DNA from: Candidatus Levyibacteriota bacterium
GTDB lineage: Bacteria > Patescibacteriota > Microgenomatia > Levybacterales > UBA12049
Direction of reading: 5' to 3'
NCBI GenBank assembly: GCA_043823085.1
Contig: JBDRBE010000004.1
Coordinates: 5,510 to 69,509, forward strand
DNA: 64,000 bases
The position numbers were made by a program, and so were the translations under genes. Each line of letters begins with the position of its first letter. Within the stretch, counting starts at the first letter, position 1. The notes beneath the pieces were generated by a model, which made no database searches, was not told the origin of the DNA, and was given only the letters and a program-made list of their open reading frames with translations. Shown here piece by piece: positions 19,099-50,426 of the stretch.

Positions 19099-19863
19099 AT
19101 GAAACTTTCAGCGATTGTTATTGCCAAAAACGAAGAGAATATGATTGCGGATTGCTTAGATAGTCTTTCGTTTTGCGATGAGGTTATCGTTATTGATAAT
19201 GGATCAACTGATCGGACATCGGAAATTGCCAAAAAAATGGGAGCAGAGATATTTATCTGTCAAACAGATGATTTTTCAGAGATGAGAAATTTTGGTCTAT
19301 CTAAGGCAAAAAATGAATGGATTTTATATGTGGATGCGGATGAGCGCGTCACAAGTGAGCTTGTACACGATATCAAATATCAAATATTAAATATCAAAGA
19401 CGTAAATATCACTGCGTTTAATATTAAGAGAAAGAATTTTTATTTTGGTTCGCAAGCGGAGAATGAGTGGCCGTACATAGAACATTTAGAGAGACTGTTT
19501 AAAAAAGAAAATCTGAAAGGTTGGAGGGGAAAACTTCATGAGAGTCCTATTATTGAGGGTAAAGTGGGGGAGTTAGAGGGATTTTTATTGCATTATACTC
19601 ATCAGGATCTTTCTTCAATGCTGGAAAAAACCATCGAGTGGTCAAAAACAGAGGCAGAGTTAAGATTAAAAGCAAATCATCCCAAAATGACCTGGTGGCG
19701 GTTTCCCAGGGTAATGGTAAGTGCTTTTTTAAATTCTTATATCAGGCAAGGCGGATGGAAAGTCGGAACAATGGGGTTAGTTGAAAGCATTTATCAATCT
19801 TTTAGTATTTTTATAACCTACGCCAGGCTTTGGGAGTTACAAAATAGAGAAAATGCAAATTAA
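19099..19863 (+). CDS. Family-2 glycosyltransferase, WaaE/KdtX-like
   Basis: Motifs LSAIVIAKNEE..VIVIDNGSTDRT..YVDADERVTSEL. Paralog of 14576 and 41143. Confidence 0.75.
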   Translation: MKLSAIVIAKNEENMIADCLDSLSFCDEVIVIDNGSTDRTSEIAKKMGAEIFICQTDDFSEMRNFGLSKAKNEWILYVDADERVTSELVHDIKYQILNIKDVNITAFNIKRKNFYFGSQAENEWPYIEHLERLFKKENLKGWRGKLHESPIIEGKVGELEGFLLHYTHQDLSSMLEKTIEWSKTEAELRLKANHPKMTWWRFPRVMVSAFLNSYIRQGGWKVGTMGLVESIYQSFSIFITYARLWELQNRENAN

Positions 19864-23561: not shown

Positions 23562-25830
23562 ATTTTTACCTCTGGTTTTTATTTGTGTTGTTTTTTTTAT
23601 TTTCTTTAGGTCCTTTCTTTTTCAAGGAAGATTACCCATCCCTTCAGATACTATTATTGGACTTTATCATCCTTTCCGCGATTATTACGCAAAAGAGTAT
23701 CCAAACGGAATTCCTTTTAAAAATTTTCTCATAACAGATCCTGTAAGACAGCAGTATCCTTGGCGAAATTTAGTAGTTACGCTTGAGAAAAAATTAGAAC
23801 TGCCTCTTTGGAATCCTTATTCATTTTCGGGAATGCCGCTTTTAGCAAATTTTCAGTCAGCTGTTTTTTATCCATTAAATTTTTTATTTTTTATTTTTCC
23901 TTTTTATCTTGCCTGGAGCATCTTGATTTTCTTGCAGCCATTAATGGCGTGCGTTTTTTTATATTTCTTTTTAAGAAACTTAAAAATCGAGAAATTACCA
24001 AGTTTATTTGGTTCGATGACATTTGCATTTTCCGGTTTTTTTATTGCGTGGCTTGAATGGGGAACGGTAATTCATACAGCTTTATGGTTGCCTTTAATAT
24101 TATTGTCGATAGACAAAATATTTATAAACTCAAAACTACAACTCAAAAATAAAAGCTTATTGCTCTGGACCCTTATTTTCATTTTTTCTCTTGTTTCTTC
24201 TTTTTTTGCAGGGCATCTTCAGACTTTTTTTTATCTTTTTATTTTTTCAGTGGTATTTCTGTTGATCAGATGGTGGCAGTACGGGAGGAATAAAAAAGCG
24301 GTTTTGCTATTTGCTATTTGCTTCCTGCTATTTGCTATTTTAACTTCAATTCAATGGGCGCCAACGTTGCAATTAATAGGTTTTTCTTCAAGAAGTATTG
24401 ATCAGTCATGGCATGATCCCGGATGGTTTATTCCCTGGCAAAATTTAGTGCAGTTTTTGATTCCCGATTTTTTTGGTAATCCGGCAACGTTAAATTATTG
24501 GGGGGTTTGGAATTACGGGGAATTTATAGGGTATGTAGGATTGCTTCCGTTAATGATGGCAATATTTGCTCTTTTTTTCAGGCGAGACAAAAAAACCTTA
24601 TTTTTTGGATTCTTATTTTTTCTCTCTTTGATTTTTTCATTGCCTACAATTTTTGCAAAGGCTCCATTTTTTCTAAAAATTCCATTTATTAGTACGTCTC
24701 AACCAACAAGACTTTTATTCATTACTGATTTTTGTTTGGCAGTTTTATCTGCAGTAGGCTTTGAACATTTTTTAAAAAACAAAAAAGGAATATTCTACGT
24801 TTTGGGATTTATCGGTTTTATTTTTGTTTCAGTTTGGGCATTTATTGTTATTGGAAAAGGTTTTAAAATCATAACTTTTGAGAATTTGAGTATCGCAAAA
24901 AATAATCTATTGCTTCCCACGGTTTTGTTTATTTTTTTCTTTATTCTAATATCAATTTATAAATTGTATCCCCAAAAAAATAAATATAGATTATTTATTT
25001 TATTAATAATTCCATATATTATGCTGTTTGGATTAATTTTTGATTTAGTACGTTTTGGGTGGAAGTTTACCCCTTTTAATCCAAAAGATTATCTTTTTCC
25101 GCAAACCTCAACAATCAAATTCTTGAAGGAACAGGAGGGACTTTTTAGAATTATGTCAAGCGATAGTACTATACTTCCGCCAAATTTTTCCGTTTTTTTC
25201 CGCTTGCAAAGCGTTGACGGGTATGATCCGTTGTATATTCAAAGATATGCGGAGTTAATGGCGGCTTATGGAAGAATGAAGCCTGATATTCACGAGCCTT
25301 TTGGATTTAATCGTATAATTACTCCGCAAAATCAGGGACGCATTATGAATTTTTTAGGCGTTAAGTATGTTATTAGCGGAAAAAGTAATTTTCCTCCGGA
25401 AAATTTAGAAAAAGTTTTTAGCGAAGGAGAGATCACGGTTTACAAAAACAAAGAAGCATTTGATAGATTCTTCTTTGTGGCAGATACAATAGTTGTTAAA
25501 GACAAGCAGTCTGCAATTGAAGCGATGTTCGATACAAACTATCTTCTTAATGAGAGAGCAATAATCGAGAATACTAATGAGCAGAAACTTATTAACGCAA
25601 ATTGGTCAAAAGGCAGCGTTGTCTTATTAAAATATACTGAAAATAAAGTTTTAATAAAAACATACAATAAAGGAAATGGGTTTTTGGTTTTTACCGATAC
25701 TTATTATCCTACTTGGCATGTTAGAATTGATGGAGTAGAAACGAAAATATATTTGACTGATTTTAATTTCCGGGGAATAATTGTCCCTAAGGGAACGCAC
25801 ATGATAGAGTTTTCTGATTCATTATTTTAA
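23551..25830 (+). CDS. YfhO-family large membrane protein (A3)
   Basis: Start chosen at MKNKFLPL (ATG 23551, overlapping the GT4 stop by 11 nt) rather than ORF start 23455. RQQYPWRNL..LPLWNPYSFSGMPLLANFQSAVFYP; C-terminal YYPTWHVRIDGVETKIYLTDFNFRGIIVPKGTHMIEF. Confidence 0.7.
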   Translation: MKNKFLPLVFICVVFFIFFRSFLFQGRLPIPSDTIIGLYHPFRDYYAKEYPNGIPFKNFLITDPVRQQYPWRNLVVTLEKKLELPLWNPYSFSGMPLLANFQSAVFYPLNFLFFIFPFYLAWSILIFLQPLMACVFLYFFLRNLKIEKLPSLFGSMTFAFSGFFIAWLEWGTVIHTALWLPLILLSIDKIFINSKLQLKNKSLLLWTLIFIFSLVSSFFAGHLQTFFYLFIFSVVFLLIRWWQYGRNKKAVLLFAICFLLFAILTSIQWAPTLQLIGFSSRSIDQSWHDPGWFIPWQNLVQFLIPDFFGNPATLNYWGVWNYGEFIGYVGLLPLMMAIFALFFRRDKKTLFFGFLFFLSLIFSLPTIFAKAPFFLKIPFISTSQPTRLLFITDFCLAVLSAVGFEHFLKNKKGIFYVLGFIGFIFVSVWAFIVIGKGFKIITFENLSIAKNNLLLPTVLFIFFFILISIYKLYPQKNKYRLFILLIIPYIMLFGLIFDLVRFGWKFTPFNPKDYLFPQTSTIKFLKEQEGLFRIMSSDSTILPPNFSVFFRLQSVDGYDPLYIQRYAELMAAYGRMKPDIHEPFGFNRIITPQNQGRIMNFLGVKYVISGKSNFPPENLEKVFSEGEITVYKNKEAFDRFFFVADTIVVKDKQSAIEAMFDTNYLLNERAIIENTNEQKLINANWSKGSVVLLKYTENKVLIKTYNKGNGFLVFTDTYYPTWHVRIDGVETKIYLTDFNFRGIIVPKGTHMIEFSDSLF
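24305..24340. repeat. Interrupted heptamer repeat tgctatt x2 + tgcttcc + tgctatt x2
   Basis: Read directly. The same ATTTGCT/TGCTATT unit recurs at 36056-36083 and 40139-40156 in other gene families. Encodes LLFAICFLLFAIL. Confidence 0.5.
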
Positions 25831-25833
25831 CTT

Positions 25834-26781
25834 ATGAATATCAGTATTGTTATTCCGAATTATAATGGGGAAGAGTTATTAGAAAAGAATTTACCAAAAG
25901 TAATAGAAGCAATTTCCGAGTATAATGGCGGCGAGATTGAATTTGTTATAGTCGATGACGGTTCGACGGATGATTCAATTGAGAAAATCAAAAATCAAAA
26001 ATCAAAAATCAAAAATACAAATGTAAAATTAAAAATTATTGAAAATTCGAAGAATTTAGGATTTTCCTCAACAGTTAATCGTGGAGTAAAAGAGTCAATG
26101 GGGGAGATTATTATTCTGCTCAATACAGATGTTATACCAGAGAAGAATTTTTTAGGACCTCTTCTTTTGCATTTTAACGATCCAAATGTTTTTGCTGTTG
26201 GATGTATGGATAAAAGCATAGAGGATGGTAAGGTTATTTTGCGAGGCAGGGGGATTGGCAGATGGGAGAGAGGATTTTTTGTTCACAAGAGAGGGGAGGT
26301 TGATAAGAAAGATACGCTTTGGGTCAATGGGGGCAGTGGCGCTTTTAGGAAATCAATTTGGGATAAGATTGGAGGTTTCAATGAACTTTATAATCCTTTT
26401 TATTGGGAAGATATTGATCTTTCCTATCGTGCACAAAAAATGGGCTATAAAATATTATTTGAACCCAAAAGTATAGTTGTTCACGAGCATGAGAAAGGGA
26501 TTATTAAGAAGAAAATGTCTTTATCAAAAATTAAAACAGTCGCCTATCGGAATCAAATAATTTTTACTTGGTTAAACATCACCGATTTAGATTGGCAGTT
26601 TCAGCATTTTTTTTGGTTGCCCTATCATCTCTTTAAATCTTTGATACACAGGAACAGGGAGTTTTTAATTGGTTTTTTTCAAGCTCTAATTTTACTTCCA
26701 AAGATTATAAAAACATCTTCCAAAATACAGAAGTTATTCGTAAAAAAAGATAAGGAAATTATTGGAGATTTTTTAGAATGA
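25834..26781 (+). CDS. Family-2 glycosyltransferase
   Basis: Motifs ISIVIPNYNGEE..FVIVDDGSTDDS..NLGFSSTVNRG..LLNTDV..YWEDIDLSYR. Confidence 0.75.
   Translation: MNISIVIPNYNGEELLEKNLPKVIEAISEYNGGEIEFVIVDDGSTDDSIEKIKNQKSKIKNTNVKLKIIENSKNLGFSSTVNRGVKESMGEIIILLNTDVIPEKNFLGPLLLHFNDPNVFAVGCMDKSIEDGKVILRGRGIGRWERGFFVHKRGEVDKKDTLWVNGGSGAFRKSIWDKIGGFNELYNPFYWEDIDLSYRAQKMGYKILFEPKSIVVHEHEKGIIKKKMSLSKIKTVAYRNQIIFTWLNITDLDWQFQHFFWLPYHLFKSLIHRNREFLIGFFQALILLPKIIKTSSKIQKLFVKKDKEIIGDFLE
25986..26015. repeat. Perfect heptanucleotide tandem repeat (aatcaaa)x4 inside a GT2 CDS
   Basis: aatcaaa aatcaaa aatcaaa aatcaaa aat read directly. Encodes KIKNQKSKIKN in the linker after the DDGS motif. Confidence 0.8.
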
Positions 26782-26834
26782 CCCTTCGACTTTACTCAGG
26801 CCTTTGGCTCTGAGGCTCAGGCTCGAAGAGGTCA
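26779..26834. repeat. GC-rich imperfect hairpin element at a gene 3' end (tgacccttcga...tcgaagaggtca)
   Basis: Outer inverted repeat tgacccttcga/tcgaagaggtca plus an inner hairpin ctcag-gcctttggct-ctgag. Shares cccttcgact...ctcagg with the in-frame insert at 16337-16382. It spans the stop codon of the 25834 gene. May act as a terminator, but there is no downstream T-run. Confidence 0.55.
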
Positions 26835-26853: not shown

Positions 26854-27570
26854 ATGAAATTATCAATTATAATTCCGGTTTACAACGAAGAAGGAACAGT
26901 CGCTGAAATTTTAAAGAGAGTAACAGCTTTAAACATTCCCGGTGTAAACAAAGAAGTAATTATTACAGATGATGGATCAACCGATGCAACGGCATCAATA
27001 ATCTCAAATCTCAAATCTCAAATCTCAAATCTCAAAATAATTTATCACAAAAAAAATCAGGGGAAGGGGGCGGCAGTAAGAACTGGAATTAAACATGCAA
27101 GTGGAGATTATATCTTAATTCAAGACGCAGATTTAGAATATAATCCAAAAGATATTATTAGGCTTTTGATACCTGTCAAAGATAAAATTGCCCAAGTAGT
27201 TTATGGTACAAGGCTAAATAGAATGCCTAATTTTACCAGAGATGAAAGAGAGCCACGTTTCCTGCTTCACTATCTTGGCAATAAAGCATTGAGTTTTATT
27301 ACAAGTTTATTGTACGGGCAATGGATTACAGACATGGAAACATGTTATAAACTTTTTCCCAAAAAATCGTTGGAAAAAATAAAACTTAATTCAAAAAGTT
27401 TTGATTTTGAGCCGGAAATTACTGCCAAACTTCTCAAAAATGGATATAAAATACTGGAGATTCCAATAACAACAAACCCAAGAGGATACAAAGAGGGTAA
27501 AAAATTGAATACTTTTAGGGATGGTTCAATAGCCCTTTGGACATTAATGAAATATCGATTTTTTGATTAA
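26854..27570 (+). CDS. Family-2 glycosyltransferase, Dpm1-like
   Basis: Motifs LSIIIPVYNEE..VIITDDGSTDAT..NQGKGAAVRTG..ILIQDADLEYNP. Confidence 0.75.
   Translation: MKLSIIIPVYNEEGTVAEILKRVTALNIPGVNKEVIITDDGSTDATASIISNLKSQISNLKIIYHKKNQGKGAAVRTGIKHASGDYILIQDADLEYNPKDIIRLLIPVKDKIAQVVYGTRLNRMPNFTRDEREPRFLLHYLGNKALSFITSLLYGQWITDMETCYKLFPKKSLEKIKLNSKSFDFEPEITAKLLKNGYKILEIPITTNPRGYKEGKKLNTFRDGSIALWTLMKYRFFD
27001..27035. repeat. Perfect heptanucleotide tandem repeat (atctcaa)x5 inside a GT2 CDS
   Basis: Read directly. Encodes SNLKSQISNLK at the same linker position as the (aatcaaa)x4 repeat in the adjacent GT2. Confidence 0.8.
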
Positions 27571-33224: not shown

Positions 33225-34878
33225 GTTTTTTAATTGGAAGTTAATATTAATTTTTATAATTATTCTTGCGGGATTTTTAAGATTTTATAAGCTTTCATCA
33301 AATCCTCCTTCTCTGACATGGGATGAGGCGGCTTGGGGATATAATGCTTATTCTTTGGGAATTGATGCAAGAGATGAATTCGGCAGATTTCTGCCTTACG
33401 ATTATCTTGAATCATTCGGCGATTTTAAACCTCCTGCCTACGCGTATTTAGACATATTGCCTATAAAAATTTTTGGACTTAATGAATTTGGCGTTCGGTT
33501 TCCTTCAGCGCTTTTTGGCGTGCTAACAGTTTTAGCTACTTATTTTTTGGTAAGAAGAATATTTCCTAATGCGAAAAAATTTTCAATTTTCAATTTTCAA
33601 TTTTCAATAGCGGAGATATCAGCTTTTATTCTTGCTATATCCCCGTGGCATATTTTGCTTTCCCGTGCCGCATTTGAAGCAAACGTGGCTACATTTTTTC
33701 TGGTTACGGGAGTCTGGCTGTTTTTAGCAGGAGCCCATGAGAAAAAATGGTGTTTGCCTTTCTCTATTTTTTTCTTTGTCCTTTCCCTTTATGCCTTTAA
33801 CACTTCAAGGATTGTAGCGCCTCTTCTGGTTTTATTATTAATGATTGGTCTTAGAAAACAGCTTTTAGAGCGAAAAAAAGAAGCAATAATAGCTTGTATT
33901 GTCGGAGTAATTCTTGTTTTGCCAATAGCACGATTTTTACTTTCGCCTCAGGCAAGTCTTCGATTTCGCGAGGTAAATATTTTTTCGGATGCAAGCGTAA
34001 TTAAAACAGTTAATCAGGAAATTAAAAATGATAATAATGCTTTTTGGTCAAAAATTATTCATAACAGGCGTTTTGCATATGGGGTTGAGTATTTTAAACA
34101 TTATTTTGACAACCTTAGTCCCGACTTTTTGTTTATAAAAGGGGATGGTAATCCAAAATTCTCGATTCAGACAGTTGGGCAGATGTATCTTTGGGAAATA
34201 CCCTTTTTTATCGGAGGAATTTTGTTCATTTTTCGAAAAAGGCAAGGATATTGGTGGATTGTTCCGTTCTGGCTTGTTTTAGGAATTATTCCGGCAGCAA
34301 CCGCTCGAGAAACGCCGCATGCATTAAGAATAGAAACAACTCTGCCAACGTTTCAAATTCTAACAGCCATAGGCTTAGCGACGGCAATAGAATTTTTATT
34401 GGCAGTGAAGAATAAAGGATTGATTACAAAACTATTAAAACTATTTGTGATATGTTATTCGCTATTCGCTATTTTCAATTTTTCATATTTTTATCATGAT
34501 TATTTTACTCATTATCCGATACAATTTTCCGGAGAATGGCAATATGGATACAAAGAATCAATTGCTTTCGTTTCCGAAAATTTAAGTAAATATGATAAGG
34601 TTGAAATTACCGACGCACTTGGTAGACCTTATATTTATTATTTATTTTACACAAAAGAAAATCCCCAGGATTTTAGAGCATCTTTAAAAGTCAAAAGAGA
34701 TGTTTTTGGCTTTGTTAATGTAACTGGATTTGGTAAATATGAGTTTAAAAGTAATCTATCGATTGATAAAAATACCCTTTTTATTAACTCGCCTGTCAAC
34801 GTGCCAAAAAATGCGGAAGCGCTAAAAACGTTTTACCTTTTAGACGGTAATTCTATACTTTCTGCGTATTCATTATGA
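33217..34878 (+). CDS. ArnT/PMT-like GT-C glycosyltransferase D2
   Basis: LRFYKLSSNPPSLTWDEAAWGYNAYSLGIDARDEFG..FKPPAYAYL..FGLNEFGVRFPSALFGV. Tandem paralog of D1 and D3. Confidence 0.75.
   Translation: MSKFFNWKLILIFIIILAGFLRFYKLSSNPPSLTWDEAAWGYNAYSLGIDARDEFGRFLPYDYLESFGDFKPPAYAYLDILPIKIFGLNEFGVRFPSALFGVLTVLATYFLVRRIFPNAKKFSIFNFQFSIAEISAFILAISPWHILLSRAAFEANVATFFLVTGVWLFLAGAHEKKWCLPFSIFFFVLSLYAFNTSRIVAPLLVLLLMIGLRKQLLERKKEAIIACIVGVILVLPIARFLLSPQASLRFREVNIFSDASVIKTVNQEIKNDNNAFWSKIIHNRRFAYGVEYFKHYFDNLSPDFLFIKGDGNPKFSIQTVGQMYLWEIPFFIGGILFIFRKRQGYWWIVPFWLVLGIIPAATARETPHALRIETTLPTFQILTAIGLATAIEFLLAVKNKGLITKLLKLFVICYSLFAIFNFSYFYHDYFTHYPIQFSGEWQYGYKESIAFVSENLSKYDKVEITDALGRPYIYYLFYTKENPQDFRASLKVKRDVFGFVNVTGFGKYEFKSNLSIDKNTLFINSPVNVPKNAEALKTFYLLDGNSILSAYSL
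33579..33606. repeat. Perfect heptanucleotide tandem repeat (attttca)x4 inside an ArnT-like CDS
   Basis: Read directly. Encodes KFSIFNFQFSI. Confidence 0.8.
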
Positions 34879-36503
34879 GTAAAAAAATTATTATTATTTT
34901 ATTTCTAATTCTTGCGATTGCTACAGTTTTACGTTTTTATAAACTTGGTGATATCCCGCCGTCACCGGATTGGGATGAAGTTGCTTTAGGTTATGATGCA
35001 TATTCTATAATTCATACAGGACGTGATGAATACGGAAAGTTTTTACCGGTTGTTTTGCGATCATTTGATGATTATAAACCGGCTTTATATGCTTATCTTT
35101 CTGTCCCGTCGGTTTTCTTTTTTGGACTAAATGAATTTAGCGTTCGGTTTCCATCCGCCTTATTAGGTGTTTTAACTGTTTTTGCAACATTTTTTCTTGT
35201 AAAGGAATTATTTAAAAGAAACGAGATAGCGCTTCTTGCATCATTTTTTTTGGCGATTTCTCCCTGGCATATTCAGTTTTCAAGAGTTGGTTTCGAATCA
35301 AATATAGGTGTAGCTTTTAATGTTTTTATGGCGCTTTTTTTTATTAAAGCATTTAGAAAACCCTACTTTTTACTTTTTTCTGCGTTTTTTGCCGGCTTAA
35401 ATCAGTATATTTATCAAAGCGATCGGGTTTTTACGCCACTTTTACTCTTAGCGCTGGTCATTATTTATTGGAAAGACTTGTTTAAGATTTCTAAAAAATA
35501 TCTTTTGACATCGGTGATTTTAGGACTAATTGTCGTTTTGCCAATGATTATTTACATCGCAACCGATAAACAAGCTCTTCTTCGTGTTTCTGGAACAAGT
35601 ATTTTTTCAAGCCAAACCGAATTGCTCAAAAATGACATTCCAAAACTTCTTCGCGATACGGCAAAGAATGATAAAATTGGATTAATTCTTGACAACAGAC
35701 GTTTCACTTTTGCTAAAATAATAGCATCAAATTATCTTTCGCATTTTAATCTCAATTGGCTTTTTATAACCGGTGATATTGCAAGACATCATGCTCCGCA
35801 AATGGGCCTTTTGTATCTTTTTGAATTACCCTTTCTTTTTATTGGGTTATACATCTTTATTTTTGGTCAATACTCAAAAAAAACAAAGTTATTAATAATT
35901 GCTTGGTTTTTGATTACTCCAATTCCGGCCTCAATTACGACCGGCGTTCCGCATGCAGTAAGGACTTTAAATTTTCTTCCGACATTTCAAATTTTTATAG
36001 CCATAGGATTAATCACAGCGATAAAATTACTATCAAACATTAAGTTTTGGAAAATATTTGCTATTTGCTATTTGCTATTTGCTATCTTTAATTTTTCATA
36101 TTATCTCAACCAGTATTTTGTGCAATTGAATTACTTTAACTCACAGGAATGGCAGTATGGTTATAAACAAGCTGTTAGTGAGGTAAAAAATATTGGGGGG
36201 AATTATCCAAAAATTGTTGTTTCGGACAAAGAGCCATTAGATAAATCTTACATGTTTTTTCTATTTTATCTTCAATATCCGCCTTTTGAATATCAAAAAG
36301 TTGGTCAATATCAATCAGGTGGATTTGCCGCCCATCATAATTTTGATAAATATGAATTCAGGCCAATAGATTGGCAAAAAGATTCTAAAGCAAAAAACGT
36401 TTTATATATTGGAACACCTGGAGAATTTCCGCCAGATATTGATGCTTTAAAAGTAATTTATAATAAAGACGGCACGCCAGCGATAAAATTAGTTAGGACT
36501 TAA
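34875..36503 (+). CDS. ArnT/PMT-like GT-C glycosyltransferase D3
   Basis: LRFYKLGDIPPSPDWDEVALGYDAYSIIHTGRDEYG..YKPALYAYL..FGLNEFSVRFPSALLGV. Confidence 0.75.
   Translation: MSKKIIIILFLILAIATVLRFYKLGDIPPSPDWDEVALGYDAYSIIHTGRDEYGKFLPVVLRSFDDYKPALYAYLSVPSVFFFGLNEFSVRFPSALLGVLTVFATFFLVKELFKRNEIALLASFFLAISPWHIQFSRVGFESNIGVAFNVFMALFFIKAFRKPYFLLFSAFFAGLNQYIYQSDRVFTPLLLLALVIIYWKDLFKISKKYLLTSVILGLIVVLPMIIYIATDKQALLRVSGTSIFSSQTELLKNDIPKLLRDTAKNDKIGLILDNRRFTFAKIIASNYLSHFNLNWLFITGDIARHHAPQMGLLYLFELPFLFIGLYIFIFGQYSKKTKLLIIAWFLITPIPASITTGVPHAVRTLNFLPTFQIFIAIGLITAIKLLSNIKFWKIFAICYLLFAIFNFSYYLNQYFVQLNYFNSQEWQYGYKQAVSEVKNIGGNYPKIVVSDKEPLDKSYMFFLFYLQYPPFEYQKVGQYQSGGFAAHHNFDKYEFRPIDWQKDSKAKNVLYIGTPGEFPPDIDALKVIYNKDGTPAIKLVRT
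36056..36083. repeat. Perfect heptanucleotide tandem repeat (atttgct)x4 inside an ArnT-like CDS
   Basis: Read directly. Encodes IFAICYLLFAIF. Confidence 0.8.
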
Positions 36504-39488: not shown

Positions 39489-41132
39489 ATGAAACGCTTA
39501 TTGTTTCTATTCATCTTTATTGTTTTTTCTCTTATTCCAATCATTGGTTTTTTTCATGGTGGTTTACCCCTTACTCATGATGGTCAAGATCATGTGGCAA
39601 GAATTGCCAATTTTTACGAGAATTTATCGCAAGGTGTTATTATTCCGCGTTGGGCGCCAAATCTTAATTGGGGTTATGGACATCCGATTCTAGAATTTTT
39701 ATATCCTTTACCTTCTTATATTGCTTCTTTTTTCCATTTCTTGGGTTTTTCCTTAATCGACTCAACAAAACTTGTTTTTGGATTGGGAATGGTTTTGTCC
39801 ACACTTTTTATGTTTCTTTGGCTGTCAACTTTTTTGGGAAAGCTATCCGCTTTTTTTGGTGCAATTTTATATAGCTATGCTCCGTATCGATTCGTTGAAC
39901 TTTATGTTAGGGGAGATATTGGAGAAAATTTAGCTTTTGCCTTTATTCCTCTGACACTCTTTTTCGTTTATAGATTTTACCAATCGCAAAACTATAAACA
40001 TATTTTTTTTGGTTCTCTTTCTCTTGCCCTGCTAATTCTTTCTCACAACGCGATAAGTTTAATGTTTATGCCATTTTTAATTTTTTATTGTTTTTATCTT
40101 GTTTGGCAATCGCCTTTGTGGAGGCTATTCGCCACGCGTTATTTGCTATTTGCTATTTTTGGTTTTGGTTTATCAGCATTTTTCTGGATTCCAGGGCTTT
40201 TTGAAGCGAAATATACGCTTCGCAATATCGTTACTGCCGGTGAATATTTAAATCGTTTCGCAAATCCTCGTGAACTTTTATATGGTTCATGGAGCTATGG
40301 GGGAAGCGGACAATTTTCTTTACAATTAGGAATTATTCAGTGGATCTCTTTAATTCTATCGCCGTTGGTGGTTTTTTATTTTTACAAAAGAAAAGAAAAA
40401 AAATACCTCTTTGTTTTAGGGCTAATTATTTATACTTTTTTTGCCATCTTTTTTATGCTTTCGCAATCGAACTTTATTTGGTTAAAAGCTATGCTTTTAC
40501 AAAATTTTCAATTTCCCTGGCGCTTTATCGCAATTACAGTTTTTTCAACTTCAGTTCTTGGGGCAATTTCAATTTCTGTTTTATCTAAAAAAATAAAGTT
40601 TATTTTAGTAGGAATTTTATTGGTTTTAATTCTTTTAATAAGCAAAGATTATTGGCAGGCAAATGGTTATTTTTACAAGCCGGACAGTTTTTTTACGGAT
40701 ATTTATAATGGTACAACAGATACCGGGGAGAGTGCACCTATTTGGTCGATTAGATTTATGGAAACTAGAGCAAAAGAGCCGTTGGAGGTTATTTCAGGTC
40801 TCGCAAAGATTAATCAAATAAAAAGAACGTCGGTTAATCATTTTTACAATGTTGAAGCTTTAGAAAAAACGAGGCTTTTGGAAAATACTTTATATTTTCC
40901 CGGTTGGGAAATTTTAGTTGACAAAAGAGCGGTTTCAATTCAGTTTCAGGACCCGAGCTTTAGAGGTTTAATGACCTTCCAAATAGATAAAGGCAAGCAT
41001 ACGGTGGAAGTTGTTTATAAGGAAACAAAGCTAAGGATGATTGCGGACATTATTTCATTTATCAGTTTAATAATTTTGTTATTTGGGCTTTACCTTGTAT
41101 CTGACAATAAATTGTTCGTAAAAAAGATATAA
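39489..41132 (+). CDS. YfhO-related large membrane protein, family B (B3)
   Basis: Start at MKRLLF just after the upstream stop. THDGQDHVARIANFYENL..IPRWAPNLNWGYGHPILEFLYP; C-terminal YFPGWEILVDKR..QIDKGKHTVEVVY plus a terminal TM. Confidence 0.6.
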   Translation: MKRLLFLFIFIVFSLIPIIGFFHGGLPLTHDGQDHVARIANFYENLSQGVIIPRWAPNLNWGYGHPILEFLYPLPSYIASFFHFLGFSLIDSTKLVFGLGMVLSTLFMFLWLSTFLGKLSAFFGAILYSYAPYRFVELYVRGDIGENLAFAFIPLTLFFVYRFYQSQNYKHIFFGSLSLALLILSHNAISLMFMPFLIFYCFYLVWQSPLWRLFATRYLLFAIFGFGLSAFFWIPGLFEAKYTLRNIVTAGEYLNRFANPRELLYGSWSYGGSGQFSLQLGIIQWISLILSPLVVFYFYKRKEKKYLFVLGLIIYTFFAIFFMLSQSNFIWLKAMLLQNFQFPWRFIAITVFSTSVLGAISISVLSKKIKFILVGILLVLILLISKDYWQANGYFYKPDSFFTDIYNGTTDTGESAPIWSIRFMETRAKEPLEVISGLAKINQIKRTSVNHFYNVEALEKTRLLENTLYFPGWEILVDKRAVSIQFQDPSFRGLMTFQIDKGKHTVEVVYKETKLRMIADIISFISLIILLFGLYLVSDNKLFVKKI

Positions 41133-41920: not shown

Positions 41921-42931
41921 ATGAAAATTTTAGTTACTGGCGGAGGAGGCTATATTGGAAGTTTTATGACCAAAAGACTTCTAGATGATGGTTTTGAAGT
42001 TGTTGTGGCCGACAGCTTCGAAAGAGGATATAAGGAAGTTGTAGATAAAAGAGCAAAATTATTAATTGGAAATTTACTTGACAAAGAATTCGTTAAAAAT
42101 ATTTTTTTGTCAGATGATATTGAAGCTGTTATTAATTTTGCAGGATACATCTCAATGGCCGAGTCGGTTGAAAATCCTGGAATTTACTTTGAAAATAACG
42201 TTTTTGGAGCATTAAATCTTTTAGAGGAAATGAGAAAAAGAGAAATAAAGAAATTTATATTTTCTTCAACAGCAGGCGTTTATGGAAATCCTAAAAGTTT
42301 GCCAATTCCTGAAGATCATCCCAAAAATCCTACAAATCCATATGGAGAAAGTAAATTAATGGTTGAAAAAATTCTTTTATGGTATAAGCCCTTTATAAAT
42401 TTTGTCAGTCTTCGATACTTTAACGCGGCAGGTGCATCTTTTGATGCAACTTTAGGAGAAAATCACAAACCGGAAACCCACATTATTCCAAATGCAATAA
42501 ACGCAGCACTTACTAATTCCGAATTTACTCTTTATGGCGATGATTACAATACTCCCGATGGTACCTGCATAAGAGATTATATTCATGTAGTAGATTTGGT
42601 TGATTCTCATGCGTTGGCTTTAAAAAAGCTGCAAACAGAAAATGGCGGCCAGGCTTTTGGCGGGCAGGGTTTTTTCTATAATGTCGGAACAGGAAAAGGT
42701 TATTCAAATAAAGAGGTGTTTGAAATGGTAAAGAAAATTTCAGGAATTGATTTTAAAGTTAATATTTCAGGAAGGAGATCGGGCGATGCGGAAAAATTAA
42801 TAGCCGACCCGACAAAAATTAAAAATGAACTCATGTTTATTCCGAAATATTCAGACCTTGAAACTTTGGTTAAAACCGCATGGCAATGGCACTCCAAAAT
42901 ATCAAATACCAAATACCAAATATCAAAATGA
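41921..42931 (+). CDS. galE: UDP-glucose 4-epimerase (GalE-type extended SDR)
   Basis: Motifs MKILVTGGGGYIGS, YGESKLMVEKIL (YxxxK), LRYFN, GDDYNTPDGTCIRDYIHVVDL match E. coli GalE closely. Confidence 0.8.
   Translation: MKILVTGGGGYIGSFMTKRLLDDGFEVVVADSFERGYKEVVDKRAKLLIGNLLDKEFVKNIFLSDDIEAVINFAGYISMAESVENPGIYFENNVFGALNLLEEMRKREIKKFIFSSTAGVYGNPKSLPIPEDHPKNPTNPYGESKLMVEKILLWYKPFINFVSLRYFNAAGASFDATLGENHKPETHIIPNAINAALTNSEFTLYGDDYNTPDGTCIRDYIHVVDLVDSHALALKKLQTENGGQAFGGQGFFYNVGTGKGYSNKEVFEMVKKISGIDFKVNISGRRSGDAEKLIADPTKIKNELMFIPKYSDLETLVKTAWQWHSKISNTKYQISK
42898..42925. repeat. Heptanucleotide tandem repeat (aataYca)x4 at the galE 3' end / start of the next gene
   Basis: aatatca aatacca aatacca aatatca read directly. 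Encodes the galE C-terminal tail ISNTKYQISK. Confidence 0.7.
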
Positions 42932-43461: not shown

Positions 43462-44603
43462 GAAAAATAATTTTAGCATTGTATTCATTGCTTCTTTTTT
43501 TTACTGCAGTTTTTTCTTATGCGTTTATTGACTCAAACTTAATTTACTTAAAAGGTCTATTTACGGATTTTGCTTTTGTACATAGGCAAATAACAACCGT
43601 AATTTACATCTCGGTTATATTTTTATTTTTTATTTTTTATTTTTTATTTTTGTCACTTGTTAGAGAAGGGAAGCTGAATCAAAAACAGTTTAAATTTATC
43701 ATTATTATTACTTCGGGAATTCTTTTGTTCTCTTATCCGGCTATGCTTTCGTATGACATTTTCAATTATATTGCAACGGCAAAAGTTACATTTTTTCATC
43801 ATGAAAATCCATACTTAATTATGCCGATTGAATTTATCGGAGATCCTCTTTTGCTGTTTACGCATGCGGCAAACAAAATAGCATTGTATGGGCCGATTTG
43901 GATTATTTTGTCGGCAATTCCTTATTTATTGAGCTTTGGTAAATTTGTTCTTATCTTACTGAACTTTAAATTATTTATTTTAGGTTTTTATTTGGCAACA
44001 ATTGCTTTGATTTGGAAAATATCAAGAAATTTATTATCAGTTGCATTATTTGCGTTAAATCCGTTAATAATAATTGAAACATTAGTGAGCGGGCATAACG
44101 ATATTGCCATGATGTTTCTTGCACTACTTGCTTTTTATTTTTTGATAAAAAAGAAATTATTCAGCTCTTTTATTTTCTTGGTATTGTCAATATTTATCAA
44201 ATACTCAACATTATTTTTAGTTCCAGTTTTTGCCTATACGCTTTTTAAAGCATGGAGAAAAGAAGCTTTAAATTGGAATAAAATATTTTATTTATCCTCT
44301 CTTTCTATGTTTACTATTTTTCTTTTATCTCCAATACGTGAAGAGATTTATTCTTGGTATGCAATTTGGTTTTTAACTTTTATCGCATTAATGCCCCAAA
44401 AGAAAATTATATTCTATTTTTCTTTTTCATTATCTTTTGGCTTACTTCTAAGGTATATTCCCTATATGCTTATGGGAACTTATTTTGATCCGACTCCAAT
44501 TTTAAAGACAATACTGACTTTCGCTCCCTCTTTTTTTCTCCTAATATATCTTTTTTTAACTCAAAGAAAAAGTCTTTTTAGAGACCTCTTCGTAATAAAT
44601 TAA
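43458..44603 (+). CDS. Polytopic membrane protein, candidate GT-C (paralog of 4025-5197)
   Basis: 381 aa. NPLIIIETLVSGHNDIAMMFLALLAFYFLIKK block shared with the 4025 gene. Confidence 0.6.
   Translation: MRKIILALYSLLLFFTAVFSYAFIDSNLIYLKGLFTDFAFVHRQITTVIYISVIFLFFIFYFLFLSLVREGKLNQKQFKFIIIITSGILLFSYPAMLSYDIFNYIATAKVTFFHHENPYLIMPIEFIGDPLLLFTHAANKIALYGPIWIILSAIPYLLSFGKFVLILLNFKLFILGFYLATIALIWKISRNLLSVALFALNPLIIIETLVSGHNDIAMMFLALLAFYFLIKKKLFSSFIFLVLSIFIKYSTLFLVPVFAYTLFKAWRKEALNWNKIFYLSSLSMFTIFLLSPIREEIYSWYAIWFLTFIALMPQKKIIFYFSFSLSFGLLLRYIPYMLMGTYFDPTPILKTILTFAPSFFLLIYLFLTQRKSLFRDLFVIN
43625..43652. repeat. T-rich heptamer repeat (atttttt)x3 + atttttg inside a CDS
   Basis: A residues spaced exactly 7 nt apart (43625, 43632, 43639, 43646). 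Low complexity; encodes IFLFFIFYFLFL. Confidence 0.5.
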
Positions 44604-46482: not shown

Positions 46483-48100
46483 ATACATATTATTAGTATT
46501 AATAATTAGTTTCTTTTCGGTCCTGGCATTATTGCCTCACGGTTTGCTGCCAACCCATGATGGCGAGTATCATGTCATAAGATTTTACGAGTTTGATAAA
46601 GTTTTACGAGACGGAAATTTTTATCCGAGATGGGCTCCCGATTTAAATAATGGTTTTGGCGTGCCGCTTTTTAACTATGTTTATCCGTTGCCAAATTACT
46701 TTGCTTCTTTGCTTCATCTCTTTGGGATAAGTTTTATTGATTCCTTTAAGCTAAACATGTTTTTTGCATCGATTTTTGGAACTATATTTTTCTATCTTTG
46801 GACAAGACGATTTTGGGGAAATTTGGGAGGTGTTGTTTCTTGCGCCTTCTATTCGTTTTCTCCATATCGGTTTGTTGATGTTTACATTAGGGGGTCTGTA
46901 GGTGAAATTTGGGCGCTTGCTTTTTTCCCGGCCTTTCTTTGGTCAATAACCAATTTCATAAAAACAAAAAGCATGAAGGATTTTGTTCTGTCAAGTTTAT
47001 TTTTATCGGCATTAATTTTTTCTCATAATATCTTGGCGTTAATGTTTTTCTTTTTCTCAATGTCGTATGTAGCCTTTTTAATTTTAAAAGAAGAAAATAA
47101 AAAAGATGTAGTATTAAAAATTTTACTCATAATATTTTTAGGATTAGGTTTGTCTTCGATTTTTTGGCTTCCGGCAGTTTTAGAAACAAAGTTCGTTACA
47201 GGGCTTCAGATTTATAATGTAAAAGAAAATTTTCCAGATCTTTTTGCGCTTTTAATTCCATCTTGGGGGTCGGGTTTTTCAGGGGGAAGTCTTCAAAATC
47301 AAATGTCTTTTCAAATAGGGATTGCTAATTTGTTTGCAGTTTTTTCATCTGTAATTATTTTGGTTTTATCGATAAGGAAAAAAGCTGAATACAAAAGCTC
47401 AATATTCTTTTTTCTAACTTGGTTTGTAATTACATTTTTTTTGATGCTTAAAACTTCCTTGCCGATTTGGGAAAAAGTTCCTTTTATGGATTATTTCCAA
47501 TTTCCTTGGCGTTTCTTGAGTCTTGAAATTGTTGTAGCGTCTTTTCTAGCAGGTAGTATCGTAAAAGCCCACAAGCCAAAATTACTGGCGGCATTTTTTA
47601 TTATTTTAGTTTTTTTGTTAGGCATAGGATATGCAAAACCAGCTTATTATTTTAACAGAGATGATAATTATTATGTGACTCGTTCTAATTTTATAGACGG
47701 GACAAATAGTCCGGGAAATTTTTTCAACACAATTTGGATGAATAATCAGTTGGCAAAACAAAAAGAAAAAATTATTCTCAAAAAAGAAGACGGAGAAATT
47801 AATTCGTTTAAAATTAAGTCAACAATTTACGAGTTTAATGTTTTTATAAAAAAAGATTTAAAAATTGCTGTAAATACTGCTTATTTTCCGGGTTGGATTG
47901 CTACTGTTGATGGAAGAAACGTTGAAACGTTTTACGATAAAGACGGACTTCTTACTTTTTCCGTTCCCAAGGGAAACCATAATATAATGGTTAGGTTTTC
48001 AGAAACGCCAATTAGAAAAATCGCATTAGTTTGGACTTTAACATCAATTTGTCTATTGGCTTTATTTGGTGTAAGCCGCTATGTTAAAATTAAAAAATGA
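46460..48100 (+). CDS. YfhO-related large membrane protein, family B (B4)
   Basis: PTHDGEYHVIRFYEFDKVLRDGNFYPRWAPDLNNGFGVPLFNYVYP; C-terminal YFPGWIATVDGRNVE..VPKGNHNIMVRF plus a terminal TM. Start uncertain: ATG 46460 chosen; the ORF begins at 46424. Confidence 0.6.
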   Translation: MARFLKFKYILLVLIISFFSVLALLPHGLLPTHDGEYHVIRFYEFDKVLRDGNFYPRWAPDLNNGFGVPLFNYVYPLPNYFASLLHLFGISFIDSFKLNMFFASIFGTIFFYLWTRRFWGNLGGVVSCAFYSFSPYRFVDVYIRGSVGEIWALAFFPAFLWSITNFIKTKSMKDFVLSSLFLSALIFSHNILALMFFFFSMSYVAFLILKEENKKDVVLKILLIIFLGLGLSSIFWLPAVLETKFVTGLQIYNVKENFPDLFALLIPSWGSGFSGGSLQNQMSFQIGIANLFAVFSSVIILVLSIRKKAEYKSSIFFFLTWFVITFFLMLKTSLPIWEKVPFMDYFQFPWRFLSLEIVVASFLAGSIVKAHKPKLLAAFFIILVFLLGIGYAKPAYYFNRDDNYYVTRSNFIDGTNSPGNFFNTIWMNNQLAKQKEKIILKKEDGEINSFKIKSTIYEFNVFIKKDLKIAVNTAYFPGWIATVDGRNVETFYDKDGLLTFSVPKGNHNIMVRFSETPIRKIALVWTLTSICLLALFGVSRYVKIKK

Positions 48101-49164
48101 AAGTTGCTATTGATATATCGCCTCTCAAGTCAGGTCATAAGGTGAGAGGAGTGGGGTTTTATTTAGAAAATTTAAAAAAATCACTTGTTGAATACGAAAA
48201 TTCTATTGAGTATGTTTTTTTTGATGAAGAAAAAGAAATACCTAATAATATTGATCTTGTTCACTATCCTTATTTTGACCCCTTTTTTTTAACATTACCA
48301 ATATTCAAGAAATACAAAACTATTGTTACAGTTCACGATTTAACTCCTCTTGTTTTCCCCAAAGCTTTTCCGAAGGGATTAAAAGGGAATATTAAATGGC
48401 AGATGCAAAAGATAGCGTTAAGAACAACCTGTGCAGTTATCACTGATTCCAAAGCTTCAAAATCAGATATCGTAAAGTTTACAGGAATAAATGAAGAAGA
48501 AATTCACGTAGTTTACTTGGCGGCAGGGGAAGAATTTATGAAGATGGAAGATGCCCGCCTGCCGGACGGGCAGGGAAGATGGAAGATGGAAATTAGAAAA
48601 AAATATAATTTGCCAGAGAAATTTGTTTTATATGTTGGAGATGTGACATGGAATAAGAATTTGCCAAGACTAGTGGAAGCTTTGAAGAAAACCAATTTAC
48701 CCTTGGTTATGGTTGGTAAAGCAATTGCAAGTAATGATTTTGATAAGAATAATTTTTGGAATTCTGATTTGACTAAAGTTCAAAATTTAATAAAAGGTGA
48801 TGAAAGATTTTTAAGGCTTGGATTTGTTCCTACAATTGATTTAGTTTGTCTTTATAATCTTGCAACTGTTTTTGTTATGCCATCTCTTTATGAAGGTTTT
48901 GGGTTACCGGTATTGGAAGCCATGAGTTGTGGTTGTCCAGTTGTGACAACGAAAGAGGGTTCATTAAAAGAAATCGCCGGGGATGCGGCGTTTTTTGTTG
49001 AAGCTTACGATACGGAAAGTATTGCAGACGGAATTAATAAAGTTTTTAGCGATAAGTTAATTCAGGAGAATTTATCTAGAGAAGGGTTAGTTTGGGCTAA
49101 AAATTTTAAGTGGAAAAAAACAGCTAAAAATACAGCCGCTGTTTATAAAAGTTTAACTTCATGA
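48097..49164 (+). CDS. GT4-family glycosyltransferase carrying a GC-rich in-frame insertion
   Basis: YEGFGLPVLEAMSCGCPVVTTKEGSLKEIAGDAA is the GT4 signature. It contains the palindromic insert at 48554-48575. Confidence 0.75.
   Translation: MKVAIDISPLKSGHKVRGVGFYLENLKKSLVEYENSIEYVFFDEEKEIPNNIDLVHYPYFDPFFLTLPIFKKYKTIVTVHDLTPLVFPKAFPKGLKGNIKWQMQKIALRTTCAVITDSKASKSDIVKFTGINEEEIHVVYLAAGEEFMKMEDARLPDGQGRWKMEIRKKYNLPEKFVLYVGDVTWNKNLPRLVEALKKTNLPLVMVGKAIASNDFDKNNFWNSDLTKVQNLIKGDERFLRLGFVPTIDLVCLYNLATVFVMPSLYEGFGLPVLEAMSCGCPVVTTKEGSLKEIAGDAAFFVEAYDTESIADGINKVFSDKLIQENLSREGLVWAKNFKWKKTAKNTAAVYKSLTS
48540..48588. repeat. GC-rich hairpin (cccgCCTGCCggacgGGCAGGg) flanked by 13-14 bp direct repeat (g)aagatggaagatg, in-frame within a GT4 CDS
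   Basis: Direct repeat at 48541-48553 and 48576-48588 with a 6-bp stem / 5-nt loop hairpin between them. Encodes KMEDARLPDGQGRWKMEI. Structure resembles a target-site duplication. Confidence 0.6.
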
Positions 49165-50426
49165 AGAAAAAAATCCTTTATTTAATCAAGAACCCTTTAA
49201 TTTCTGGCAGTACAATTATTTTTTTTGGTTTGGGATTGGCTAATCTTTTGAACTATTTTTTTAATTTGAGCATGGGGAGACTGCTTTCAGTTTCAGACTA
49301 TGGCACATTAGGTTCTTTAATATCAATCGTTAATATTTTTAATATTGTAGCATTGACGATAACCGTTGTTTTTACTAAATTCACAGCTTCCTTTTTGGGT
49401 CAAAACAAAGAAACAAGTATTCCGCTCCTTTTTCGTAAAGGAACGCTTTGGATTGGTGCAATAAGCTTATTTATTCTAGTGGTGCTCGTTATTTCATCTG
49501 GTCAAATTGCGCATTTTCTAAACATAAAAGATAAATTTTTAATAGATATAATTTCTTTAGCAGTTTTTTTCCTTTTGCTTCTTGCGGTCGTATTCGGTAT
49601 TGTTCAGGGACTTCTTAAATTTACTTTTTATTCAATCTCCAATATTTTAGTTTCTCTTGTTAAATTAGTTTTAGGTGTTGTTTTAGTTTTTTTAGGATTT
49701 CGGGTATTTGGTTCAGTATTGGCAATTATGGTCTCGTTAGCATTGGGATATTTTTTCACTTTTTTCTATATCCGCCGTTTTTTTCTTAAAAATAAAACAA
49801 AAGATTTTGCAATCCCTAATTTAGCAAGCACGCTTTCAGGCTACGGAATTCCTGTGCTTTTGGCAAATCTTGGTATAATTTCCATTATTTCAATGGATCT
49901 TATTGTTGTAAAACACTTCTTTTCGGATACTATTTCCGGTCAATATGCGGCACTATCTCTGATGGGGAGGTCGATATCCTACGTGGTTACTCCAATTCTT
50001 CTTGTGCTTTTTCCTCTTATTGCACAAAAAAAAGAACGTCGGGAAAAATTACTTGGAACGGTTTTCCTTTCGGCGCTTCTCATTGGAGTACCTTCAATAT
50101 CCTTAAGTGCACTATATTTTTTATTCCCAAATATCGTTTTAAAGATTTTTTTCCCCGCACAAGCATATGCAACACTCGCTCAATTTCTAGGTCCTTTTTC
50201 TATTTTTATTCTTTTTTACACATTTGCATCACTTCTAAACAGTTTTTATCTGTCAATTGGAAAAACTAAAGTGTTTATTTTTAATCTTATTGCTCTTTTT
50301 TTGGAAATCTTATTTATTACTTTTTTCCATGCAAATATTTCTCAAGTGGTTACAGGGTTAATTGGAATATCTTTTTTACTTCTTTTAGCGCTTTTGCTAT
50401 ACTACCCACATGCAACAAAAAAATAA
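49161..50426 (+). CDS. Wzx/MOP-family flippase-like membrane protein
   Basis: 421 aa, about 12-14 TM segments. Paralog of 51221 (shared PLISGSTIIFFGLGLANLLNYFFNL / PIISGSIIIFLGATLASFFSFLFNL N-termini). Confidence 0.65.
   Translation: MKKKILYLIKNPLISGSTIIFFGLGLANLLNYFFNLSMGRLLSVSDYGTLGSLISIVNIFNIVALTITVVFTKFTASFLGQNKETSIPLLFRKGTLWIGAISLFILVVLVISSGQIAHFLNIKDKFLIDIISLAVFFLLLLAVVFGIVQGLLKFTFYSISNILVSLVKLVLGVVLVFLGFRVFGSVLAIMVSLALGYFFTFFYIRRFFLKNKTKDFAIPNLASTLSGYGIPVLLANLGIISIISMDLIVVKHFFSDTISGQYAALSLMGRSISYVVTPILLVLFPLIAQKKERREKLLGTVFLSALLIGVPSISLSALYFLFPNIVLKIFFPAQAYATLAQFLGPFSIFILFYTFASLLNSFYLSIGKTKVFIFNLIALFLEILFITFFHANISQVVTGLIGISFLLLLALLLYYPHATKK

Follow-up and report, generated by a model that had tools for sequence, protein, structure and literature searches.

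The kind of element closest to the one described here is that of the small dispersed repeats (SDRs) of Nostoc, of which Elhai et al. are said to have described in 2008 families of hairpin-forming sequences, 21-27 nt long, for which tandem heptameric repeats are a frequent setting. SDRs are cited among the short palindromic repeats that are interspersed in genomes and whose origin is unknown (PMC3116915), SDR5 has been found inserted precisely between nucleotides 3 and 4 of HIP1 (PMC4390886), and neither SDRs nor SDR-like repeats have been reported outside the Nostocaceae (PMC5861425). The subject of this report is a 21-nt GC-rich near-palindrome, hereafter the core, that lies between two exact copies of a 14-nt repeat within a glycosyltransferase gene of a Candidatus Levyibacteriota bacterium (contig JBDRBE010000004.1), in a 64,000-nt stretch of DNA that was analysed as a whole and is called the window. 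We consider it probable that this core is a non-autonomous hairpin mini-element that leaves no target-site duplication (TSD) and that inserted cleanly into a pre-existing heptanucleotide (heptamer) array encoding a disordered loop. Like the SDRs it is very short, non-coding, present in many dispersed copies, apparently mobile and inserted precisely, in short specific contexts within conserved sequence, a likeness at the level of description. Unlike the SDRs, it is hosted by Levybacteria, Wolfebacteria-like Patescibacteria, and a Bacillota metagenome-assembled genome (MAG) with its prophages rather than by Nostocaceae, and its copies lie predominantly within protein-coding genes.

Several other groups of short repeats invite comparison. 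Rickettsia palindromic elements (RPEs) are palindromic selfish repeats of about 150 bp that occur in frame in unrelated genes at structurally permissive sites (PMC10969869); the core is likewise palindromic, in frame and tolerated at a structurally permissive place, but whereas RPEs measure 100-150 bp, occur in Rickettsia alone and have in common a conserved peptide that they encode, the core is 21 nt long, is read in six frame and orientation classes and crosses phyla. Repetitive extragenic palindromic (REP) elements are GC-rich imperfect palindromes of 20-40 nt in many copies (PMC3733652, PMC3116915), which lie outside genes and have one end marked by the tetranucleotide GTAG or CGTC (PMC3733652). 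The core shares with REPs and the REP-based REPINs its shortness, GC-richness, imperfect palindromy and multiple copies, but it has no GTAG or CGTC tag (it starts with CCYG and ends with CAGG) and is found mostly in genes. Transposition of the IS200/IS605 type uses single-stranded hairpin DNA and produces no TSD, and insertion of the core similarly appears to leave none. The GC clusters of yeast mitochondria are GC-rich palindromes of 30-50 bp in an AT-rich genome, apparently mobile and occasionally in frame (as in var1), with some classes flanked by short target repeats; to our knowledge they have no link to heptamer arrays. The core resembles them as a short GC-rich palindrome scattered in AT-rich DNA, being shorter and heptamer-linked. 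Heptamer simple sequence repeats (SSRs), for their part, occur in many bacteria more often than expected, polymerase slippage being a possible cause, and have been little studied; the published arrays, namely the short tandemly repeated repetitive (STRR) sequences of Calothrix and Nostoc, TAACTGA of Beggiatoaceae and GGGAATC of Xanthomonas, are mostly intergenic, with one or a few units per genome (PMC4692102, PMC4679880). Unlike these, the arrays of the window lie in open reading frames (ORFs) and each has a unit of its own, their position being conserved among orthologs while the units are species-specific. In the literature searched we found no paper that treats palindromes, tandem repeats and insertion together in bacteria of the candidate phyla radiation (CPR), and no occurrence of the core sequence. 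The core is a very small dispersed palindromic element of a known, if obscure, kind, and what is new is its host range and its reproducible association with coding heptamer arrays.

The locus comprises the following features.

48097-49164, + strand: host gene, a GT4/GT1-family glycosyltransferase (GT-B fold) of 355 amino acids; ORF, with Pfam PF00534/PF13439 assigned via the 100% identical protein P0001 of an NCBI 'Candidatus Levyibacteriota' MAG
48540-48553, + strand: left flank, GAAGATGGAAGATG, that is (GAAGATG)x2, encoding K-M-E-D; left half of a split heptanucleotide array
48554-48574, + strand: core element, CCCGCCTGCCGGACGGGCAGG, a 21-nt near-palindrome that adds the seven residues ARLPDGQ (A153-Q159)
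48558-48574, + strand: hairpin with stem CCTGCC (48558-48563) / GGCAGG (48569-48574) and loop GGACG
48575-48591, + strand: right flank, with GAAGATGGAAGATG at 48575-48588; (GAAGATG)x2.4, the right half of the split array, which in its different frame encodes (G)-R-W-K-M-E

Direct reading bears out the description given in an earlier note on this DNA, of a GC-rich stem-loop between exact direct repeats within a GT4 gene; its 13-nt repeat and 22-nt core differ from our 14 and 21 nt only in the flank to which a shared G is assigned. The core is 86% GC (18 of 21 nt), against 33.7% for the host gene and 32% for the window, in which it occurs once at up to three mismatches (none expected). A repeat search of the window returned the 14-nt flank pair as 100% identical at a spacing of 35 nt, and Tandem Repeats Finder reported the right flank at 48574-48591 with period 7 and 100% matches. 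The ORF reads through the insert as FMKMEDARLPDGQGRWKMEIRKKY, the core being free of stop codons in all six frames.

The core hairpin is real but modest. The two strands fold as RNA with energies of -13.5 and -14.4 kcal/mol (z = -1.9 and -2.65) and as DNA with -8.4 and -8.5 kcal/mol (z about -2.4), and two hairpin registers compete, namely CCTGCC/GGCAGG with 6 bp and TGCCCGCC/GG(A)CGGGCA, which pairs 48552-48559 with 48564-48572. A terminator scan of 48000-49300 did not report the hairpin, which is followed by the tail GAAGATGG and has no T-run, and an intrinsic terminator is thereby ruled out. A known RNA family is ruled out likewise, with no Rfam match to the core: the whole window gave one tRNA only at the gathering score, and 48450-48680 gave no match at E<=10. 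Elsewhere in the same gene the hairpin CGCCGGGGATGCGGCG (48975-48990), with TTTTTTG after it, resembles a terminator; it encodes the conserved IAGDAAFF segment and probably arises only as a consequence of that coding sequence.

In an AlphaFold model of the host protein (mean predicted local distance difference test score, pLDDT, 86.7), residues 139-161 are a coil that connects the final strand of the N-terminal domain to the helix 162-169. Because the block 151-160 within this coil has a pLDDT of 56, the added residues A153-Q159 are predicted to lie in a disordered inter-domain linker, a position tolerant of insertion, where the local consequence of the event would be a surface loop longer by seven residues.

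The nature of the event emerges from a comparison with homologs, in which L-numbers denote compared DNA loci or contigs and P-numbers protein homologs. The insert is present in 2 of 120 protein homologs and in 1 of about 70 species-representative loci, and a comparison with insert-free GT4 orthologs, which the earlier note had proposed, finds the core absent from orthologs of the same linker-length class. Insert-free proteins read K-L/M-E-x-G-x-W-K-x-E-I at the site (alignment of 30 homologs), for example KMENGKWKMEI in P0047/L006 and KLEIGNWKLEI in L007 and L059, and the linker from YLAAGE.F to LYVGD measures 36-37 residues in 99 of the 120 homologs as against 43 in the window protein. Once the core is taken out, the DNA reads AAG ATG GAA GAT G|GA AGA TGG AAG ATG GAA, which translates as KMEDGRWKME(I) and has both the length and the motif of the orthologs. 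These comparisons indicate that the insertion is lineage-specific and was clean, with exactly 21 nt gained and neither duplication nor deletion.

In other species the same linker carries heptamer arrays without the core.

L006: uninterrupted heptamer array (AAAATGG)x4.4
L007 and L059: uninterrupted heptamer array (GAAATTG)x4.8
L023: uninterrupted heptamer array (AAATATC)x4.9
L018: heptamer array with the unit AGAATTC

Perfect heptamer runs in the linkers of L006, L007, L059 and L023 span 31-34 nt. Since other species carry uninterrupted arrays at this place, the direct repeat of the window is an older coding array cut in two, and the flanks are the two halves of a pre-existing (GAAGATG)~4.6 array rather than a duplication. 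In most of L006-L085 the linker lies near locus position 10430, and its lengths fall into the classes 29/30, 36/37 and 43/44; the classes differ by 7 amino acids, which equals three heptamer units, the position of the array being conserved and its unit differing by species.

The earlier note had instead seen a target-site duplication here, as would be made by a transposon resembling a miniature inverted-repeat transposable element (MITE) that duplicates a 13-14-bp (or 7-bp) target, and an exact 14-nt direct repeat does abut both ends of the core. Yet removal of the core together with one 14-mer (35 nt) or with one heptamer (28 nt) breaks the frame, the former also leaving the gene shorter than its orthologs, and only removal of 21 nt restores the ortholog length and motif. 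Nor are compensating changes needed to reconcile the 35-nt period with the frame, a point that the same note had raised: because 35 = 2 mod 3, the two 14-mers are simply read in different frames (KMED and RWKM). The finding that the earlier note had named as its own refutation, a repeat motif shared by core-less orthologs, is moreover largely borne out: the duplicated K-M-E is there in L006/P0047, for example, encoded by (AAAATGG)x4.4.

The core has a wide family. Its consensus is CCYGCCTGCCGG-NNN-GGCAGG, of which the window core is the 'CCC...ACG' variant, and the family is derived from the perfect palindrome CCTGCCTGCC|GGCAGGCAGG, with one base added. A metagenome scan with the pattern CCYGCCTGCCGGNNNGGCAGG matched at least 120 contigs. 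Among the matches listed, to which all metagenome site counts here and below refer, 103 of 128 sites lie in contigs of at most 50% GC, and the exact 21-mer of the window is the second commonest variant, with unrelated flanks at 20 low-GC and 8 high-GC sites. Core positions 3 and 15 covary (T with A in 69 of 70, C with G in 22 of 32); the free triplet is almost always CAA, CGA, ACA or TCA with T3, and ACG or CGA with C3. At low-GC sites the core is preceded by G or A in 93 of 102 cases and followed by G or T in 74 of 101. Of the 103 low-GC copies, 69 sit in stretches of 150 codons or more that contain no stop, and every one of the six combinations of frame and orientation is represented. A scan of viral contigs added 95 family copies, with the exact 21-mer at about 35 sites that again have unrelated flanks; about 30 of the exact copies belong to prophage-like contigs of one Bacillota MAG, the host having been assigned by an exact protein match. 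The copy-rich contigs are as follows.

L213, L214, L216, L235, L239, L240, L263 and L270 (IMGVR_UViG_2820306284_*): copy-rich prophage-like contigs

L270 reaches a density of about one copy per 1.4 kb. Many of the prophage copies lie in frame in terminase, tape-measure and sheath-like genes, where they encode peptides such as ARLPDGQGFW, DPPAGRAG and LPVRQAG; the copy-rich phage contigs gave no match by megablast against plasmids and none by tblastn of the capsid against phages. That a tiny GC-rich inserted element tolerates coding sequence, as the earlier note had proposed, is therefore upheld by the core-less orthologs and by the occurrence of the 21-mer family in long ORFs of unrelated contigs.

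Housekeeping genes are among the hosts. In a Wolfebacteria-like member of the Patescibacteria, the LigA gene at 6728-8902 of L115 (- strand) repeats the pattern of the GT4 linker, with three modules of array plus core. LigA orthologs vary in length between 669 and 772 amino acids and have three hypervariable sites with heptamer-encoded peptides and assorted GC-type inserts; one of these sites holds a bare array in two orthologs (AKIKNQKSKIKIK), a type-A core in the query and other GC inserts in further species. Element peptides occur in only 2 of 120 LigA orthologs and 2 of 120 GT4 orthologs, and this sporadic distribution is the pattern expected from insertions. The opposite proposition, that nothing was inserted and that the locus represents a local or ancestral protein loop (LP-x-G-Q) under selection, or else an artefact of assembly or library, can appeal to the RLPxxQG type of peptide at the same place in two species. 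We find it barely credible, given that 118 of 120 homologs have no such loop, that a core of 86% GC stands in a gene of 34% GC, that it is identical DNA and not an identical peptide that recurs across frames and strands, and that independent assemblies (NCBI, Logan, JGI and ENA) contain core-bearing sequences whose loops vary and whose reading frame is intact.

The flanks of the dispersed copies allow the question of duplication to be put across the family. An abutting direct repeat of only 0-2 nt is found at 122 of 139 distinct low-GC sites, the same as in controls. Long abutting repeats are of 7 nt (6 sites) or 14 nt (2 sites), and although these eight family members could be counted in favour of target duplication, all eight are heptamer arrays. 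Taken with the frame and ortholog evidence above, this makes a duplicating transposon very improbable, and we have rejected the class of MITEs and other TSD-generating transposons, the flank repeat being a pre-existing array and the 122 sites carrying no TSD. What the flanks do display is a preference for arrays. When the 14 nt on each side of the core were joined and tested at a threshold of at least 80% period-7 identity, 16 of 124 sites (13%) passed, compared with 0 of 23,647 control positions, and periods 3-6 and 8-12 gave no enrichment; the family is strongly over-represented inside heptamer arrays. The units of these arrays are arbitrary (GATTTTT, GGTTTTA, AATTTTG, GATTTGA, TATCAGG, CGGTTTG, GAAGATG, GAAAATG and others). 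Complementarity between the 10 nt directly abutting the core on either side was not enriched, offset inverted flanks being seen by eye at several sites.

Cores were also seen by eye at the tips of other palindromes, in L188, L091 and L108. As a separate observation, the core is nested centrally in another palindromic repeat, GTCATTGCGAGG...CGACGAAGCAATC, at L188 ~136, L151 ~7312, L178 ~2154 and L177 ~2685; these nested cores look like insertions at hairpin tips and would involve a third dispersed repeat family.

The insert might alternatively have been kept for a function, either as a hairpin (for ribosome pausing, mRNA stability or protein binding) or as a lock that fixes the glycosyltransferase in its ON frame. 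Such a role would suit the retention of the stem with a different loop in L001, the covariation of positions 3 and 15 across the family and the location of all 12 heptamer arrays of the window in envelope-glycosylation genes, the classical setting of contingency loci. It would suit, too, the division of a 4.6-unit array into 2 + 2.4 units, which, judging from established SSR behaviour, should reduce slippage frameshifting and stabilise the frame. The 21-mer is found, however, in any frame and orientation, in intergenic as well as genic DNA and in housekeeping (LigA, tsaE-like) and phage structural genes, and its hairpin is neither terminator-like nor matched in Rfam. This frame- and site-independent occurrence therefore favours a selfish or neutral DNA-level unit over a site-specific function, which we regard as improbable.

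Closer to the window, L001 (protein P0002) has the same flanks and the CCTGCC/GGCAGG stem at the same position, with GGCGA as its loop instead. The window and L001 are identical at 32 of 32 flank nucleotides and share the core as well, but with the linker masked the window protein is 65% identical to P0002, and each of the two has closer relatives that lack the core: P0002, for one, shares 73% identity with the insert-free P0120. In a neighbour-joining tree the two proteins belong to different sub-clades. Shared descent with many losses, independent insertion and module transfer are all possible origins of this shared site. The last of these leads to the main rival of an insertion, namely that array-core-array modules are copied by homologous or microhomology-mediated gene conversion with the heptamers as arms or, in a variant, by template switching during slippage repair. 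The identity of flanks and core in two non-sister genes fits that proposal well, as do L143, where an unrelated ORF of 1270 amino acids holds (GAAGATG)3|core|GAAGATGGAAG, L200, where (GAAAATG)n accompanies the exact window core, and several type-A sites with AAGATK-like units in the same relative orientation. Against it stand cores in arrays of unrelated units (GATTTTT, GGTTTTA, AATTTTG, TATCAGG, CGGTTTG and others), which offer no homology to a donor, the position of most copies outside arrays, and L034, whose flanks are ordinary ancestral gene sequence; on balance we think recombination unlikely as the general explanation.

L034 bears the core CCTGCCTGCCGGCGAGGCAGG 4 nt further downstream in the same GT4 linker, as GGAAA|core|TTGG, with the core-less reading RRLETGNWKSEI. 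In L059 the core CCTGCCTGCCGGCAAGGCAGG lies antisense in another gene, an ORF of 151 amino acids with a P-loop that is tsaE-like by eye, where it adds PALPAGR within a degenerate heptamer array. The insertions in L034 and L059 are independent events. The GT4 linker has received other GC-rich inserts as well: different 24-nt cores lie inside arrays in L002 and L031 (TCC(A/G)TTCGGCAAGCTCAGGACAAG) and in L003 (ACCCTTCGGATTCGCTCAGGGCGA), and 30-nt inserts lie inside arrays in L025 and L047. Such inserts were sought with a strict hairpin scan, a loose scan for GC islands having been swamped by ordinary GC-rich coding stretches.

How would the core move? We infer that it is moved in trans, by an enzyme encoded elsewhere. 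Single-stranded DNA or an extruded hairpin is probably the form in which it moves or the target that it enters, a route that would explain insertion without a TSD together with the preference for slippage-prone arrays and palindrome tips and that would suit the hairpin potential of both strands. With low confidence, the mechanism may be of the IS200/IS605 type, including the REP-associated tyrosine transposases (RAYTs), or may be a template switch at stalled forks. Its persistence in genes would be due to a length of 21 nt and to the lack of a stop codon in any of the six frames.

Several points weigh against this account of a clean insertion by a mobile element. Among the window ORFs of at least 110 amino acids, Pfam reveals no transposase, recombinase, HUH, reverse transcriptase or integrase domain; no RAYT, TnpA or Y1 gene is found among them either, within 64 kb of sequence from a contig that measures 431 kb or more. 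Sixty ORFs from part of the Bacillota prophage contigs likewise include no transposase, HUH, reverse transcriptase or integrase, their content being phage structural, DNA adenine methylase-like (DAM-like-phage1) and helix-turn-helix domains. No pair of empty and filled sites could be shown among near-identical strains, the closest non-self homolog of the host protein being 66% identical among 5.8 billion proteins. The window, L001 and the unrelated L143 all join the core to GAAGATG, which spread by recombination fits at least as well as transposition does. In a perfect array a 7-bp duplication with loss of one unit looks identical to insertion without a TSD, and because insertions in arrays are ambiguous in this way, the claim that no TSD is made rests on the sites outside arrays. 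The energy of the core hairpin is only about two standard deviations better than that of shuffled sequences, and the metagenome scan pattern fixed 17 of 21 positions and under-samples the diversity of the family and the covariation of its structure.

The surroundings of the gene are uniform in theme. The window, 1-64000, is one envelope-glycosylation and polysaccharide super-cluster of about 40 genes, nearly all on the + strand, with at least 13 GT2, 5 GT4/GT1, 4 YfhO, 4 PMT-type and 4 PTPS_related genes, 3 flippases, epimerases and aminotransferases; the Pfam assignments of ORFs of at least 110 amino acids comprise these envelope-glycosylation genes plus Lon, GNAT and domains of unknown function (DUFs). 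Perfect heptamer arrays of at least 2.5 units number 12 in the window, against 0.13 expected under a first-order Markov model, whereas arrays with periods of 4-6 and 8-12 are at expectation. All 12 lie inside long ORFs (GT2, YfhO, PMT-type, PTPS_related, epimerase and the GT4 gene discussed here).

19370-19387, 23879-23898, 24303-24322, 25984-26016, 27000-27036, 33578-33608, 34456-34473, 36055-36085, 40140-40158, 42903-42922 and 43620-43651: eleven further perfect heptamer arrays of 2.6-5.3 units, each with its own unit

We regard these eleven as candidate tracts for frameshifting, and so for phase variation, in this CPR genome.

The window also holds other GC-rich inserts, which the earlier note had grouped with the core in one family. 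This grouping fails, since the sequences differ, with a 30-nt double hairpin in one insert and a CCCTTCGACnnnnCTCAGGGC-type motif in the others; the candidate that other GC inserts of the window are of the core's family is ruled out, the core having its single copy at up to three mismatches and the motifs being different. In the GT2 gene at 16182-17141, a 30-nt GC-rich in-frame insert (16264-16293) lies between two AGTTATC heptamers and consists of two hairpins, CTGC-GAA-GCAG and CTCGC-TTC-GCGAG, separated by GAT. The 30-nt insert in the GT4 linker of L025 has the same architecture in another sequence (GTCC-AAA-GGAC, GAT, CAGCC-TTT-GGCTG), which suggests that 30-nt double-hairpin inserts form a second class defined by structure. 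A 42-nt in-frame insert in the same GT2 gene (16338-16379) and a 56-nt intergenic palindrome (26779-26834) both contain CCCTTCGAC-nnnn-CTCAGGSC. The 19-mer CCTTCGACTCCGCTCAGGG has 46 occurrences in viral contigs, at 37 loci with a GC content of 31-69%, and in many cases an inverted partner lies downstream; this is a second widely dispersed family, distinct from the 21-nt core. Apart from these, the GC-rich stretches 818-845 and 1557-1595 share CCACGCCCC...CCCCCAAAAGC and bracket the DUF5615 gene (870-1274, - strand), in a setting formed by the 3' end of the Lon gene and the region upstream of a DUF3147 gene; the two stretches may represent a direct repeat on either side of a small cassette that was inserted.

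A broader proposal would make the heptamer arrays and the GC palindromes of 21-30 nt a single cross-phylum system of Patescibacteria and of Bacillota with their prophages, in which the arrays serve as slippage-prone landing pads and possibly as frameshift switches of envelope-glycosylation genes, and in which one enzyme makes or uses the arrays and inserts the palindromes without duplication. The array flanking the core has a unit length not divisible by 3, and such arrays lie in ORFs of envelope genes, with linker classes 7 amino acids apart in a comparison at the species level. We offer this proposal tentatively and consider it doubtful.

Elements of about 21 nt that carry no enzyme and leave no duplication have so far been known only as a curiosity of the Nostocaceae, and the presence of an identical 21-mer in CPR bacteria, a Bacillota MAG and prophages points to a general phenomenon. 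For annotation, this means that LPAGRQ, PACRQAG, RLPDGQG and PALPAGR in metagenomic proteins are footprints of a DNA element and not protein motifs. Should the single-system proposal hold, the palindromes would be the smallest mobile DNA known outside the cyanobacteria, and CPR genomes of about 1 Mb would provide a very short list of candidates for the mobiliser, sought ever since the description of the SDRs in 2008; in genomes so small, comparing copy number with gene content would offer a practical route to the mechanism. For the Levybacteria themselves, an uncultured lineage, the heptamer arrays in envelope-glycosylation genes constitute a candidate mechanism of phase variation.

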